Sequence record: SRR20825006_1157
Direction: 5' to 3' (one strand)
Length of the DNA: 64,000 bases
Made by a program: the position numbers and the translations under genes
Notes under the pieces: model-generated
Told to the model about the DNA's origin: nothing
What the model saw: the letters and a program-made list of their open reading frames with translations, nothing else
The model's database searches: none
Shown here: positions 8,073 through 14,774 of the stretch, in pieces
Position numbering within the stretch: position 1 is the stretch's first letter
Layout: every line of letters starts with the position of its first letter

Positions 8073-8840
8073 CTAAGCCGCCACGCAATTTCGCCCGCGA
8101 CTTTTGGCGATATAGAGATTTTTGTCGGCGGTTTTCATAAAGTGTGATGGCTTTTCGCCTGCTTCATGCGTTGCCACACCAATGGAAACAGTAAGCGTAA
8201 ATCGCTTCTTTTTATTGTCGAATGTCAGCAGCGTTACATCTTGGCGAATATTCTCAGAAACATCTTCAGCCAGTTTCTGGTTGCCGCCTTCCAGATAAAC
8301 ACCAAATTCCTCACCACCTAAACGACCTGCAAGATCGCTACGTCGCATATTTTGATTGATCACCTTGCCAATAAACTCAATGGCCTCATCGCCTGCCGCA
8401 TGGCCAAACTCATCATTGAGCTGTTTGAAGTGATCGGCATCAATATAAAGGAATGCGCCGCGGCCTTCCGGATTGGTTGGATGCGAAATACGATCACGCA
8501 TGGCTTGAATAAAGCTGGTGCGATTCAACAAGCCAGACATTTGATCAACGCTGGCCATGCGTGCCAACTGCACGCTCAAACTGTTCAGTTTTAGCCGCTG
8601 CACTGACAGATAAACTGCGATGGGAAACGCCACCACCACGGTGATTATGCCCGTCAATAAGAGGTTGACCAAAACATAGTCCCAAGTGGATTTGGCGATA
8701 TATTGATAATAAACGAAGGTCAGAATTTCAGCGCCAAGCAAAGCCAAAAGGGTGATGCTTACCGCCTTGCGAAATGCGGGTTGAACAAAATTGCGGTCAG
8801 CAAGATCAATGCCTGTCAGTGATTTAATTTGTCGCAACAT
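8073..8840 (-). CDS. Membrane-anchored GGDEF diguanylate cyclase
   Basis: Two N-terminal TM segments; DQMSGLLNR, DADHFKQLND, GGEEF active site; RxxD I-site (RRSD) five residues upstream. Confidence 0.92.
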   Translation of the reverse strand: MLRQIKSLTGIDLADRNFVQPAFRKAVSITLLALLGAEILTFVYYQYIAKSTWDYVLVNLLLTGIITVVVAFPIAVYLSVQRLKLNSLSVQLARMASVDQMSGLLNRTSFIQAMRDRISHPTNPEGRGAFLYIDADHFKQLNDEFGHAAGDEAIEFIGKVINQNMRRSDLAGRLGGEEFGVYLEGGNQKLAEDVSENIRQDVTLLTFDNKKKRFTLTVSIGVATHEAGEKPSHFMKTADKNLYIAKSRGRNCVAA

Positions 8841-8952
8841 TTCTACTTACCCCGTACTCAACATAACCCTCGCCCCGCATCCAATATGCGGCAACCCGTT
8901 TAAATATTATGAGCGGAACTAGATAAAATTTTATCTATCTCGAATGGCCGTG

Positions 8953-8981
8953 TTGACGGTTTAAAACGCAACCCCTAAGAC
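8953..8981 (+). promoter_or_regulatory. Putative sigma70 promoter of the cob operon
   Basis: TTGACG (8953-8958), 17-nt spacer, TAAGAC (8976-8981), immediately before the structured leader. Confidence 0.55.
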
Positions 8982-8990
8982 TATCGCCCT

Positions 8991-9124
8991 GCGCAGCGTT
9001 CCAATGAAGGAACTGAAAGCGATTCTGGTGAGGCTGACCCAAACAGGGAGCCAAGCCCGGAGCTGCTCGACGTTGATTTTTTGCGAACTCTGCCTCTCCC
9101 GATTTTAAAAACCGAAGAGGTAGA
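8991..9124 (+). ncRNA. Structured 5' leader resembling a truncated/variant cobalamin riboswitch
   Basis: GTTCC/GGAAC hairpin, then TGAAAGCGATTCTGGTGAG...AAGCCCGGAGCTGC, resembling the 5' half of B12 elements. Anti-SD TCTGCCTCT (9089-9097) can pair with AGAGGTAGA (9116-9124). Upstream of cob genes. Confidence 0.55.
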
Positions 9125-9127
9125 ATA

Positions 9128-9316
9128 ATGAAATATTTCCTAGCATCCATTTTTGCCCTGTTGCCCAGCTTTGCGTTGGCACATCCTGGCCACACTGAAG
9201 AAGTGGCGGGCCACACCCACACTTTGATGGATTTGGCAGCTTATGGCGCCATCCCAGCAGCGCTCTTTGTGGCTGCCGTTTTCGGCTATGCCATTTACCG
9301 TCGCGGCGATAAATAA
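9128..9316 (+). CDS. Small His-containing membrane protein (DUF6732-like), possible cobalt-uptake accessory
   Basis: Signal peptide, AHPGH...AGHTH, one TM helix. TAATG overlap with cbiX. Confidence 0.75.
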   Translation: MKYFLASIFALLPSFALAHPGHTEEVAGHTHTLMDLAAYGAIPAALFVAAVFGYAIYRRGDK

Positions 9317-10446
9317 TGAATTTCACATTGGATACAGACACAGCGGTGATGCTGTGTGGCCATGGCAGCCGCAACAAGTTGGCCGTGGATGAATTCGCGC
9401 ACCTCAAAGATCGTTTGAAAGAACGTTTGGGCGATGTGCCAGTTGAATATGGCTATTTGGAATTTGCCGATCCGGTGATCCATCACGGCCTCAATCAGCT
9501 CAAAGAGCAGGGCGTGAAAAAAGTGATCGCCGTGCCGGGCATGCTGTTCGCCGCTGGCCATGCGAAAAACGATATTCCATCGGTACTGAACACCTATCAG
9601 GCGCAAAACCCTGACATGGAAGTGATCTATGGCCGTGAGCTGGGTGTGGATTTGAAAATGATCCGCGCCGCGGGTGCCCGCATTGAAGAGGCGTTGGAAC
9701 AAGCAGGCGGCGATGTGCCACGCGAGGAAACCTTGCTTGTGGTCGTGGGCCGGGGGGCTTCTGACCCCGATGCCAATTCCAACGTGGCAAAAGTGATGCG
9801 CATGTTGTGGGAAGGCATGGGCTTTGGCTGGGCCGAAGTGGCCTATTCCGGCGTCACATTCCCGCTCACCGCCCCGGCGCTGCAACATGCAGCAAAGCTT
9901 GGTTATAAACGGATCGTTGTGTTTCCTTATTTCCTCTTCACCGGCGTGCTGGTGAAGCGGATTTATAAATATACCGATGAAGTGGCCGCCGAACATCCCG
10001 ATATTGAGTTTATCAAAGCGGGCTATTTGAACGACCATGACATGGTGGTGGAAACCTTTATCGACCGTATCCGCGAAGTGGTGGACGGCGAAAATAATAT
10101 GAACTGCCAGATGTGTAAATATCGCGAGCAGGTTCTAGGGTTTGAAGCCGAAGTGGGGCTGGCGCAAGAAAGCCATCACCATCATGTGGAAGGCATTGGC
10201 GGCGGCATGGAAGATTGCCCCTGCAATGGCGATTGCGATGCATCCTGCCGTGATGAGGAGTTCTGCAAAAAGCACGGACTGCCTTTCACCCCGGTGCATA
10301 AGCATGACCACGATCATCATCATGATCACGGCCATTCGCATGACCATGGCGATGGGCACCACCATCATCATGATCACCATCACCACCCTTATCCGTTTAA
10401 GGACCATCCATTGGGTCCGAAAACCATGGAGAAAAAGGGGCCCTGA
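9316..10446 (+). CDS. cbiX: Long-form CbiX sirohydrochlorin cobaltochelatase with Cys- and His-rich C-terminus
   Basis: GHGSR, GYLEFADP, AAGHAKNDIP, GRGASDPDAN, PYFLFTG, MNCQMCKYR. Confidence 0.9.
   Translation: MNFTLDTDTAVMLCGHGSRNKLAVDEFAHLKDRLKERLGDVPVEYGYLEFADPVIHHGLNQLKEQGVKKVIAVPGMLFAAGHAKNDIPSVLNTYQAQNPDMEVIYGRELGVDLKMIRAAGARIEEALEQAGGDVPREETLLVVVGRGASDPDANSNVAKVMRMLWEGMGFGWAEVAYSGVTFPLTAPALQHAAKLGYKRIVVFPYFLFTGVLVKRIYKYTDEVAAEHPDIEFIKAGYLNDHDMVVETFIDRIREVVDGENNMNCQMCKYREQVLGFEAEVGLAQESHHHHVEGIGGGMEDCPCNGDCDASCRDEEFCKKHGLPFTPVHKHDHDHHHDHGHSHDHGDGHHHHHDHHHHPYPFKDHPLGPKTMEKKGP
10297..10386 (+). repeat. Low-complexity CAY/GAY tract encoding the CbiX His-rich tail
   Basis: HKHDHDHHHDHGHSHDHGDGHHHHHDHHHH: 19 His in 30 codons. 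Confidence 0.85.
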
Positions 10447-12289: not shown

Positions 12290-12990
12290 GCGGCACGCTT
12301 TATTTGATCGGCACCGGGCCGGGCGATCCTGAATTATTGACCCTGAAAGCCGCGCGTGTGCTGAGTGCGCTGGATGGCGTGGCCTATCCGCAAAAGCCGG
12401 GCACCACTTCGCAAAGCCTCACCATTGCAGAAACGCATTTGAGCGAGAGCGTCGAGCATTTCGCGTTTGATGTGCCCATGGCGGTGGACCGAGGCCCGGC
12501 GCAAGCGGCCTACGATCAAATGGCCGAGCACCTCGCACCCAAATTGGCTGACGGGCAGAATATTGGCTATCTGTGTGAAGGCGATCCGCTCTTTTACGGC
12601 TCGGCCATGTATTTGCTGCACCGCTTGCCGGATGCGCAGATTGAAATCATCCCCGGCATCACCTCATTGACCGCTGCCGCCGCCGAAATCAAACGGCCGC
12701 TGGCCGCGCGTAATGAGCGGTTGAAAGTTCTACCCGCACCTCTGGAAAGCGCTGCGCTGGAAGCCGAGCTTGCGGCCAGCGAAGCCGTGGCGCTGATCAA
12801 GATTGGTCGCCATTTCGACCGGGTGCGCGATGCGCTCAACAAAACCGGGCACGGCGACAGCGCGATGGTGGTGGAATATGCCACTCGCGACACGCAAAAA
12901 ATCACCAAACTGGCCGACTACCCGCAGGGGGAACGGCCCTACTTTTCGATCATCCTCAGCTATAAAGGCGACGAAGCATGGGGCACCTAA
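12286..12990 (+). CDS. cobI: Precorrin-2 C20-methyltransferase
   Basis: GTGPGDPELLTLKA, LCEGDPLFYGS, IPGITS, PYFS. Confidence 0.93.
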   Translation: MSGTLYLIGTGPGDPELLTLKAARVLSALDGVAYPQKPGTTSQSLTIAETHLSESVEHFAFDVPMAVDRGPAQAAYDQMAEHLAPKLADGQNIGYLCEGDPLFYGSAMYLLHRLPDAQIEIIPGITSLTAAAAEIKRPLAARNERLKVLPAPLESAALEAELAASEAVALIKIGRHFDRVRDALNKTGHGDSAMVVEYATRDTQKITKLADYPQGERPYFSIILSYKGDEAWGT

Positions 12991-14774
12991 ACCAAAACCC
13001 GCCATTGGTGATTTCTTTTTCGGAAAGCGGCAATGAAGTCGCTGAGAAAATCGCGACCGCGCTTTCAGTCGAAGCACAGCCTTATAAAAAAGGCGAGATG
13101 GACCCGGCCCGCGCCGCTGTCGAACGGGGCTTTCAACAGGGCCGCCCCATCATCGGCATTTGCGCGGCGGCGATCCTGATCCGTTTTCTCGCACCATTTT
13201 TGGCCGACAAAAAAACCGATCCACCGGTGTTGGCGGTGTCAAGCGATGGCAAAAGCATTGTGCCGCTTTTGGGCGGGCACCATGGGGCCAATCAACTCGC
13301 CAATGATCTCGCGCAGGATTTGAACGCCCATGCGGCGATCACTACGGCCAGTGAAAACATCTTTGGCGCGGGGCTGGATGAGGTGCCGTTCGGGTGGACC
13401 TTGGTTAATCCCAAATCCGCCAAGCGGGCCATGGCGTCATTGCTGGCAGGGGCAAAATTTCATATCAAGGGTGAGGCCGACTGGTTGGCCAAACACCCGG
13501 CCTATGATCCTGACGGCGAAGTGCAATTGCTCGCCCATATCCACCATCGGGAAGAGCAAGACGCGCCGCATTATGTGCCACAAAAGCTGGTGGTTGGCGT
13601 CGGCTGCGAGCGCCATTGTCCAGCGGACAAGATCATCGAATTGATCAAATCCACCATCAAAGCCAACAAGCTGCATCCCCAGGCCATCGCGGCGCTGGCC
13701 AGCATTGACTTGAAAGCCGACGAGCAAGGCTTACAGCAAGCCGCCGCCCATTTCGGTGTGCCTTTGCGCGTCTTCACCGCTGAGGAATTGGCGGCAGAAC
13801 GCGAGCGCGTGCCGAACCCTTCCGCCATTGTGGAGCAGGAAGTGGGCACGCCTTCAGTAGCCGAAGCCGCTGCCTTGAAGGCGGGGGCGTTGCTGGTGGA
13901 AAAGCAAAAGAACAAGCAAGCCACCTGCGCCATTGGCATCTCAGACGAGGTGATCGATCCGCAGCTTTTGGGCCGTGCTTTGGGCACAGTTTATCTTGTG
14001 GGGTTGGGGCCAGGCACCGCCACTTTGCGCACGCCAGAGGCAGACCGCGCCTTGCGGGTGGCAAGCGATTGGGTCGGCTATGGGCTCTATCTGGATTTGG
14101 CGGCAGATGCCAAAACCTACCAAACCGAACATCGGTTTGATTTGGGCGAGGAAGAATTGCGCGTGCGTCACGCACTGGAGCTGGCGGGCACGGGCCGGAA
14201 TGTGGCGTTGATCTGCTCTGGCGATGCGAACATCTTTGCCATGGGCGCGCTGATCTATGAACTTCTGGTGGCCGAAGGCGACCGCGCCCTTTCCGATGCG
14301 GCGAAGCGCGTGGCGATTGAAACCTGCCCCGGCATTTCCGCGTTCCAAGCAGCGGCGGCCAAGTCTGGCGCGTTGATCGGCCATGATTTCTGCTGCATTT
14401 CTCTGTCTGATTTGTTGACCCCGCGCGACGATATTTTGAAACGGCTGGACGCGGCAGCGACTGGCGATTTTGTCACCGCCTTTTACAATCCACGCTCAAT
14501 GCGCCGGACCGATCTGATCGAAATCGCGAAGGAAAAATTCCTCGCTGAACGGCCAGACAACACCCCCGTGATCATCGCCTCCAACCTTGGTCGCCCGGCG
14601 GAAAAAGTGCGGGTGGTCACATTGGCCGAGTTCAATCCGGAAGAAATCGATATGCTCACTATCGTGCTGTTCGGGTCTTCCCAATCCAAAAGCTTTGTGC
14701 GCGGTTCCAGCGAACGGGTCGCCTATACCCCGCGCGGATACGCCAAAAAAGCAGCAAAAGAGGCGGCACAATGA
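12978..14774 (+). CDS. cobJ: CbiG-CobJ(CbiH) fusion: CbiG domain plus precorrin-3B C17-methyltransferase
   Basis: CbiG motifs DPPVLAV, LLGGHHGAN, ITTAS, GVGCER, VAEAAAL; C-terminal VGLGPG, ISLSDLLTP, FYNPRS, YTPRGY. Confidence 0.92.
   Translation: MGHLNQNPPLVISFSESGNEVAEKIATALSVEAQPYKKGEMDPARAAVERGFQQGRPIIGICAAAILIRFLAPFLADKKTDPPVLAVSSDGKSIVPLLGGHHGANQLANDLAQDLNAHAAITTASENIFGAGLDEVPFGWTLVNPKSAKRAMASLLAGAKFHIKGEADWLAKHPAYDPDGEVQLLAHIHHREEQDAPHYVPQKLVVGVGCERHCPADKIIELIKSTIKANKLHPQAIAALASIDLKADEQGLQQAAAHFGVPLRVFTAEELAAERERVPNPSAIVEQEVGTPSVAEAAALKAGALLVEKQKNKQATCAIGISDEVIDPQLLGRALGTVYLVGLGPGTATLRTPEADRALRVASDWVGYGLYLDLAADAKTYQTEHRFDLGEEELRVRHALELAGTGRNVALICSGDANIFAMGALIYELLVAEGDRALSDAAKRVAIETCPGISAFQAAAAKSGALIGHDFCCISLSDLLTPRDDILKRLDAAATGDFVTAFYNPRSMRRTDLIEIAKEKFLAERPDNTPVIIASNLGRPAEKVRVVTLAEFNPEEIDMLTIVLFGSSQSKSFVRGSSERVAYTPRGYAKKAAKEAAQ

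Follow-up and report, generated by a model that had tools for sequence, protein, structure and literature searches.

A cob operon lies on the plus strand of a 64,000-nucleotide (nt) stretch of DNA from sequence record SRR20825006_1157 (hereafter the window), and its 5' leader (8991-9124) raises the question of which kind of RNA precedes these cobalamin (B12) genes. Cobalamin riboswitches are defined by a four-way-junction core together with a B12 box. A preliminary description made from the sequence alone had noted that the leader lacks this box, and had proposed either a remodelled riboswitch or a decayed B12 element. The leader separates the operon from a divergent GGDEF gene on the minus strand (8073-8840). 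It carries a three-way-junction RNA that is conserved and covarying, is homologous to part of the cobalamin riboswitch and has lost the canonical core. We favour the explanation that 8991-9124 is a translational OFF switch which descended from an alphaproteobacterial cobalamin riboswitch and probably responds to a corrinoid; for this reading as a whole, the chances appear evenly balanced.

Fold and distribution of the element

RNAalifold was run on a MAFFT alignment of 20 leaders (A1) and returned a helix P1, a hairpin at 8998-9013, an arm with an inner hairpin at 9032-9052 and a separate hairpin over the Shine-Dalgarno (SD) sequence at 9089-9124 (Table 1). The element, hereafter the mini-element, is a three-way junction of about 75 nt that consists of P1, the hairpin P1a and an arm (P2) resembling P4 of the cobalamin riboswitch, with an inserted hairpin. 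The pieces named in the preliminary description, namely GTTCC 8998-9002/GGAAC 9009-9013, TTCTGG 9023-9028/CCGGAG 9057-9062, GGCT 9032-9035/AGCC 9049-9052, CGTTG 9071-9075, TGAAAGCGATT at 9014-9024 and GCTGCTCG at 9062-9069, are all present in the window. P1 (GCAGC 8993-8997/GCTGC 9062-9066) had been overlooked, and it is this helix that closes the three-way junction and competes with the platform segment downstream.

Covariation was evaluated in further alignments. In a MAFFT alignment of the aptamer that was not fitted to a covariance model (A2), 98.6% of the cells were paired and four of the 22 pairs showed compensatory changes; none of 500 shuffles reached its covariation score, and slid controls were 27-57% paired. 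A covariance model (R1) was then built from the mini-element alone. The 71 family hits of R1 that were fetched, 68 of them distinct, formed alignment A3, and a set from cbiX loci, also with 68 distinct sequences, formed A4. Compensatory changes were found at 15/22 pairs in A3 (97.5% of cells paired) and at 18/22 pairs in A4 (96.4%), again with none of 500 shuffles equalling the covariation score, both alignments being fitted to the model. P1 covaried, for example, as GCAAC/GUUGC and GACGGC/GCUGUC, and its sequence was wholly different in the representative L307. Both helices of the P2 arm, which encloses UGA and AAG besides the inserted hairpin, covaried as well. Bases shared by 90% or more of the 68 distinct sequences, mostly unpaired or next to helices, were CUG (9013-9015), A9018 and A9022 in the junction, and GGUG, GG, GACCCA and GGG, which are near-invariant, in the arm. 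Positions 9019-9021 of the junction were variable. A conserved, structured aptamer with covariation in a 5' leader, one of the marks of a riboswitch, was thus found.

Other pairings were considered and rejected. In some sequences, the junction strand (9019-9023) could form a pseudoknot of 3-4 pairs with the linker that follows P1, but this pairing was inconsistent across relatives. The minimum free energy (MFE) fold offered GCGA with UGCU, which was not kept in relatives with a CACAG or CAGAG junction. A pairing of CAGCG with CGTTG, suggested earlier, has its partner within the non-conserved linker and was abandoned.

Table 1. Features of the leader and of the first genes behind it (positions in the window)
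Feature	Position	Strand	Description
Putative promoter	8953..8981	+	TTGACG 8953-8958, 17-nt spacer, TAAGAC 8976-8981
P1, 5' strand	8993..8997	+	GCAGC; from RNAalifold; 4/5 P1 pairs compensatory in A3, likewise in A4
Hairpin P1a	8998..9013	+	GUUCC/GGAAC, loop AAUGAA; compensatory at 5/5 pairs in A3 and 4/5 in A4
Junction strand	9014..9023	+	UGAAAGCGAU; canonical counterpart UGAAAAGGGAA, with GGG (P3 5' strand) altered
P2 arm (P4 of the cobalamin riboswitch)	9024..9061	+	UCUGG 9024-9028 with CCGGA 9057-9061
Hairpin inside P2 arm	9032..9052	+	GGCU 9032-9035/AGCC 9049-9052 plus CCC 9038-9040/GGG 9046-9048
P1, 3' strand	9062..9066	+	GCUGC; the same letters open the canonical GCUGCCCCCGCAACUGUAA segment
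Variable linker	9067..9084	+	Length and sequence vary; extra hairpins in some relatives
Platform segment	9085..9097	+	GAACUCUGCCUCU; near-invariant in 58 type-A leaders
SD-sequestering hairpin	9089..9124	+	UCUGCCUCU 9089-9097 with AGAGGUAGA 9116-9124; SD AGAGG 9116-9120
DUF6732 gene	9128..9316	+	First regulated gene; 62 amino acids, signal-peptide-like N-terminus, His-rich motif; Pfam PF20506, E 1.1e-10
cbiX	9316..10446	+	Long-form sirohydrochlorin cobaltochelatase, His-rich tail; Pfam CbiX 6.4e-53

The genome nearest to the window was G001, and this genome and its relatives were used for the comparison; the closest named record was a contig of Maritalea mediterranea, which was 99% identical over CbiX. 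A blastn search with 8900-9330 matched 21 of 41 relatives, all of them within the family, where 25 genomes were available. In these 21 genomes a core of about 110 nt was 71-100% identical, which exceeded the flanking coding sequence; together with the covarying helices, such conservation is well beyond chance. Beyond the genus the match shrank to about positions 92-200 of the query, i.e., to the leader and not the genes. R1 matched 132 of 151 sampled genomes of the family, and 115 of the 151, as counted by hand from the matches, had one hit of at least 55 bits. When cbiX orthologues were found from the protein side in Devosiaceae, Rhizobiaceae, Phyllobacteriaceae and unclassified Hyphomicrobiales, an R1 match was located upstream on the coding strand at 76 of the 80 loci. 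Genus g40 had only weak R1 hits of the canonical type, and the CbiX query had a match in none of its five genomes. A loose IUPAC pattern scan of contigs gave mostly chance matches among those listed, and 6 of 80 fetched loci were real (65-93 bits).

A second model (R2) was built from A4 and applied to an order-level sample of 151 genomes at E<=1e-6. A total of 51 genomes were matched, and 30 of the 151, spanning 14 families, reached at least 67 bits. At the class level, with about one genome per family, R2 matched 8 of 151 genomes. The seven class-level loci outside G001 comprised three canonical RF00174 riboswitches and four mini-elements without an Rfam match. These four, from other alphaproteobacterial orders, precede CbiX, a HupE/UreJ permease, a DUF6732 protein and an unassigned 62-amino-acid (aa) protein, respectively. 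At the permease locus (L305 1714-2331), found in one genome, the permease gene takes the place of a biosynthesis gene behind the mini-element.

The genes controlled were counted as the first open reading frame (ORF) of at least 130 aa behind the 71 family hits, after two rows identical to the window and the short L189 were dropped. Among the 68 remaining ORFs, 49 were CbiX, 13 CbiG_C (CobE-like) and two CbiC. The other four had no family match and were apparently mis-called, because the opening residues of a cob gene were readable for three of them. The steady tie of a riboswitch to the genes of one pathway is therefore seen here (64/68 ORFs are CbiX, CbiG_C or CbiC), and the element was placed exclusively before cob or cobalt genes.

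Kinship with the cobalamin riboswitch

Rfam 15 contains no model for the mini-element, and none of its models matched anywhere in the window at the gathering score. At E<=10, the region 8850-9200 gave four noise hits, none of which belonged to the cobalamin clan CL00101 (RF00174, RF01482, RF01689). Over the mini-elements of the window and 35 related loci, Rfam likewise returned noise only (XIST_intron, EFASI, CRISPR-DR6, sR35 and MIR171_2). The partial 5' hit that had been expected was thus absent, and homology was seen only with the model built from the element itself.

With that model, 10 matches (24.7-51.7 bits) were obtained in 12 loci carrying canonical RF00174 riboswitches, and the alignment to the canonical copies ran column by column through the hairpin, the junction, P4 with its insert and GCUGC. 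According to this alignment and the RF00174 structure line, P1a corresponds to the canonical hairpin arm that follows the outer stem and precedes the GGG strand. The junction strand corresponds to the canonical strand whose GGG pairs with CCU of the B12 box. The P2 arm is canonical P4, including a lineage-specific inserted hairpin that is near-identical in both RNAs, and GCUGC at 9062-9066 is the start of the canonical segment given in Table 1. Two cobalamin-riboswitch features are therefore present in the leader, namely the P4/L4 arm and the hairpin arm that lies ahead of P3 behind the outer stem. Its earlier description as a remodelled riboswitch is upheld: the leader keeps this hairpin arm, P4 with an insert and GCUGC, while J3/4 is changed. 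In the canonical RF00174 loci themselves (L026 1501-1715; L023-L034, L308-L310), the hairpin inserted in the L4 loop is about 21 nt long. It was reported by cmscan as an insertion relative to the Rfam consensus and is near-identical to the inner hairpin of the mini-element; canonical L4, which carries this insert, normally receives L6 or J6/7.

The remaining cobalamin features were missing. The P3-P6 four-way junction is not formed, and GGG of P3 reads GCG or varies. Neither a B12 box nor the GCCCCCGCAACUGUAA segment was present within 8991-9130, where GCUGC is followed by the variable linker (9067-9084) and not, as in canonical copies, by P5, P6 and the opening half of the B12 box. The reported lack of the box was thus confirmed and extends to the P5/P6 region. 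There is also no P5/L5 to make the kissing contact with an expression-platform loop; in the mini-element, the 5' strand can pair either within P1 and P1a or with the platform. In the available part of PMC7367189, cobalamin riboswitches share the P3-P6 four-way junction as well as the L5 kissing loop, the ligand sits in a cleft between the P3/P6 and P4/P5/P13 stacks, and L6 (or J6/7) docks into L4. None of these, neither the junction, the kissing loop, the L6 docking nor the ligand cleft, can form in the mini-element, and because of this the element is a homologue of part of the cobalamin family and not a member. The segment GAACUCUGCC was considered as a relic of the B12-box end GAGACCUGCC; with 7-8 of 10 letters alike it is indistinguishable from chance, and the idea is speculation only.

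An ordinary cobalamin riboswitch that the Rfam model merely fails to score would explain the position before a cob operon and the local sequence likeness to RF00174 members. It is contradicted by the absence of any clan match, at E<=10 in the window and at E<=1 in eight diverse representatives, whereas canonical copies, of which the relatives have two or three each, scored 88-148 bits. In addition, 20 of the 71 family hits have their start codon no more than about 10 nt after P1, which leaves no room for P5, P6 and a B12 box. We consider ordinary membership extremely improbable. A non-functional remnant would account for the loss of over half of the ancestral aptamer and is very improbable too. 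In that case relatives might have been expected to carry an intact element and no covariation of the short form, and this is clearly not what was observed. A canonical riboswitch, which would have spoken for a shared ligand, was sought ahead of the orthologous cbiX operons in 80 loci and none was found. The relatives instead carry the short form, present at 76 of the 80 loci, and Rfam matched none of the 20 cbiX loci examined that had scored low or had no hit; the short form shows compensatory changes at 18 of 22 pairs and has gained a new covarying closing helix. Selection on the element, as opposed to decay, is supported, and the alternative of a decayed B12 element given in the preliminary description does not hold. 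Both decay and ordinary RF00174 membership are excluded by the data.

Compared with RF00174 (Cbl-I) of the same genomes, the mini-element is similarly placed before cob or cobalt genes with control at the ribosome binding site. In both RNAs the 5' strand is followed by a hairpin arm, and both have the junction sequence UGAAA..A and P4 with the inserted hairpin (GGUGCG..CGACCCAAA.AGGGG..CAAG.CC) followed by GCUGC. The mini-element differs in that it lacks P3 (GGG/CCU), the segment with the L5 loop, P6 with its extension, the B12 box and an outer stem formed with a 3' partner. It is a three-way junction of about 75 nt, in contrast to the four-way RF00174 of about 200 nt, and is closed by a new P1 that reuses GCUGC. 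The NiCo (czcD) riboswitch, a four-way junction controlling efflux genes, would be a functional analogue if the ligand were Co2+, and there was no Rfam match to NiCo. A reduced or altered periphery is also known from the Cbl-II/adenosylcobalamin-variant RF01689 and the B. subtilis yvrC variant, but these retain the P3-P6 junction and the L5 kissing loop, as far as the available part of PMC7367189 goes, whereas the mini-element has no such core. Guanine-class variants (PMC9295807) and the spermidine class derived from an S-adenosylmethionine aptamer (PMC10853860) are, in the portions of these papers at hand, likewise derivatives of a parent aptamer with a distinct conserved core. These variants stay close to the parent, while the mini-element is missing over half of its parent and has acquired a new closing helix.

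Expression platforms and the proposed signal

The platforms couple P1 to the SD sequence. The 71 family hits fell into two types, 51 of type A with an anti-SD hairpin and 20 of type B with the SD near P1. In type A, a linker of 13-57 nt is followed by the near-invariant (G)CGAACUCUGCCUC, and CUCUGCCUCU pairs with the SD region. RNAalifold gave the SD hairpin seven pairs, two of them with double changes, and a loop of variable length. In type B, a purine-rich SD lies 0-4 nt after P1 with the start codon within about 10 nt, and P1 extended across the SD in two of seven MFE folds. Copies from Rhizobiaceae (L041-type loci, e.g., L281, L277 and L262) showed a third platform about 60-100 nt after the aptamer, with a conserved GGCGCUUCGUACA... 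and then ...ACGAAGCAGGGAGGCC; here GGCCUU at the SD can pair with AAGGCC directly behind P1. A single aptamer joined to several platforms that all link P1 to the ribosome site is what riboswitches usually show.

In the window, the pairing of TCTGCCTCT (9089-9097), the anti-SD, with AGAGGTAGA (9116-9124) proposed in the preliminary description was confirmed. Its competitor, the ON helix, would join the switching strand (8993-8997 and 8998-9001) to 9085-9093: GCAGCGTTC at 8993-9001 and GAACTCTGC at 9085-9093 form eight of nine pairs with one C.U mismatch. The segment GAACUCUGC amounts to the 3' strands of P1a and P1 joined into one run, and it can form a continuous helix with the 5' strand GCAGCGUUC. 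Duplex energies of the ON helix lay between -6.5 and -19.6 kcal/mol for each of the 58 distinct type-A leaders. The computed conformers of the window were nearly isoenergetic, which favours a switch: -42.8 kcal/mol for aptamer plus SD hairpin (OFF) and -41.0 for the alternative helix (ON), with -43.4 for the MFE fold. The aptamer is therefore found on varied platforms with mutually exclusive structures, as in riboswitches. The claim that two exclusive pairings govern the SD stands insofar as both can form; the covariation of the ON helix is thin and confined to one lineage.

The mechanism may be envisaged as follows. An ancestral cobalamin riboswitch would have lost the P3/P5/P6 core and the B12 box, and the remnant would have been re-closed by the new helix P1 (GCAGC/GCUGC) into the three-way junction. 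With the junction folded and stabilized by its signal, the 5' strand would be held in P1 and P1a; the anti-SD would then be free to pair with the SD, and translation of DUF6732-cbiX-cob would be OFF. With the junction unstabilized, the 5' strand would pair with the platform, and this helix would remove over half of the anti-SD and free the ribosome site (ON). In relatives with a short platform, the SD would lie at the P1 3' strand or inside its extension and the polarity would be the same. In the modelled folds, the polarity is OFF when the aptamer is folded for both platform types.

Several observations weigh against the reading as a corrinoid-responsive OFF switch. A3 and A4 were fitted to the model and hence lean towards its structure, whereas A1 and A2 were not. 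Equilibrium folding has the SD paired without any ligand. Only one of the nine ON-helix pairs showed a double change, in four sequences of one genus, and its count of covarying pairs was reached by 436 of 500 shuffles (83% of cells paired). The pocket parts of solved cobalamin riboswitches, the P3-P6 junction and the L5 kissing loop, are absent (PMC7367189, in the part available). Canonical cobalamin riboswitches coexist on other cob and cobalt genes, so a different signal could act here. The transcription start, finally, is an inferred one. As for the ON helix, substitutions in the platform were mostly neutral for pairing (A to G opposite U), and the sole compensatory change was that of genus g13, where a G-C pair of P1 became A-U and the platform C became U at the matching place. 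Its support is thus weak, consisting of conservation and one event and not of statistics.

A structured leader without a small-molecule ligand, serving as the target of a protein or RNA or as a constitutive element that sets transcript stability and dampens translation through the SD hairpin, would fit both the default closure of the SD and an alternative helix backed mostly by conservation. This explanation appears unlikely, since the element descends from a metabolite aptamer, has invariant unpaired nucleotides in its junction as ligand pockets do, couples P1 to the SD in at least three platform designs, and is found only before cob or cobalt genes in several orders.

If the leader is a switch, its OFF polarity and its regulon (cobalt uptake, cobalt chelatase and corrin ring synthesis) suggest a corrinoid end product as the most likely, predicted ligand. 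Since the canonical pocket parts are absent, a corrinoid, if it is the signal, would have to be bound in a new pocket that does not resemble the canonical one. The same RNA, fold and switch might instead sense Co2+ or a cobalt-free or early corrin/tetrapyrrole intermediate. The loss of the canonical B12 pocket elements points in this direction, as do the canonical RF00174 riboswitches on cobW, CbtA and TonB-receptor genes of the same genomes and the cobalt-centred genes adjoining the element (His-rich DUF6732, the chelatase CbiX and the HupE/UreJ permease), and the guanine and spermidine variants discussed above, from what is available of both papers, provide a model for such a change of ligand. 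However, OFF polarity suits repression by an end product better than a cobalt signal for a pathway that consumes cobalt. The gene set does not discriminate between the signals because canonical B12 riboswitches also control cobalt transporters, as stated in the available part of PMC2211319. We regard a signal other than a complete corrinoid as doubtful, and a corrinoid-responsive switch remains the preferred reading. That the junction of about 75 nt is a self-sufficient small-molecule aptamer and a new riboswitch class, for a corrinoid or for another signal of the pathway, is slightly favoured on balance. Such a class would have arisen when a cobalamin riboswitch was trimmed to its P2-arm/P4 half and closed anew.

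Operon context and significance

A good promoter had been claimed for the leader. In relatives, the motif TTGAC(C/G)-17 nt-(C)TA.AA is kept at an unchanged distance from the element, but a simple promoter scanner did not call the plus-strand promoter at 8953-8981. Because of this conserved spacing, the transcript probably starts a few bases before 8991. The RNA libraries X1, X2 and X3 were searched for the leader transcript, and neither a start, a strand nor a level was obtained. X1 and X2, which are seawater libraries, contained a relative about 94% identical (different at 103 of 1601 nt over window positions 8400-10000) in contigs that cover the region in full together with the divergent gene, and X3 contained one 193-nt piece. 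The X1 and X2 contigs show that close relatives were present in those seawater samples and are not evidence of transcription.

Besides the features in Table 1, the DUF6732 protein of the window has a HPGHTEEVAGHTH motif and a hydrophobic C-terminal stretch. A DUF6732 gene is also next to the element in L306, and small His-rich ORFs resembling this protein lie between the element and cbiX in many relatives, including other orders (L306, perhaps L307). The protein could be a cobalt-handling partner of CbiX. The CbiX of the window contains a Cys-rich stretch (CQMC..., CPCNGDCDASC) and ends in the long His-rich tail HDHDHHHDHGHSHDHGDGHHHHHDHHHH. According to the ORF list and Pfam, cbiX is followed by cbiC/cobH, cobL, cobI, cbiG-cobJ, cobM and further cob genes, with Pfam matches to CbiC, TP_methylase, CbiG_N and CbiG_C. 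A single ORF of 598 aa at 12978-14774 joins CbiG_N and CbiG_C to a CobJ/CbiH-like tetrapyrrole methylase domain. Other genera of the family have a free-standing CbiG_C (CobE-like) gene, which comes first behind the element. The divergent gene at 8073-8840 encodes a membrane-anchored GGDEF diguanylate cyclase (Pfam 5.7e-40), and no link between it and the cob leader was seen. Elsewhere in G001, canonical riboswitches precede cobW and a gene for an unassigned 271-aa protein, and at two of the class-level canonical loci a TonB-receptor gene (L308) and CbtA (L309).

The element was not described in the available portions of the literature searched, including PMC8632094, PMC5737381 and PMC2211319; the early catalogues of B12 elements were outside this search, and an earlier mention there cannot be excluded. 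In one bacterial order and some of its neighbours, the core of the cobalamin riboswitch has been replaced, before the main corrin-synthesis operon, by a far smaller and highly conserved fold that escapes current family libraries. If the mini-element binds B12, it would be a second and far simpler natural way of recognizing a very large cofactor, and no natural B12 sensor would be smaller. Binding of cobalt or of an intermediate would make it a new ligand class and a clear instance of aptamer function changed by loss of a domain, and the Hyphomicrobiales would then have two separate RNA sensors for their B12 economy. With about 75 nt, the RNA is short enough for direct biochemical and structural work. 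Either way, the element would be a hitherto unannotated regulatory feature to be added to the maps of the B12 regulon in Rhizobiaceae, Devosiaceae, Phyllobacteriaceae and their marine relatives.

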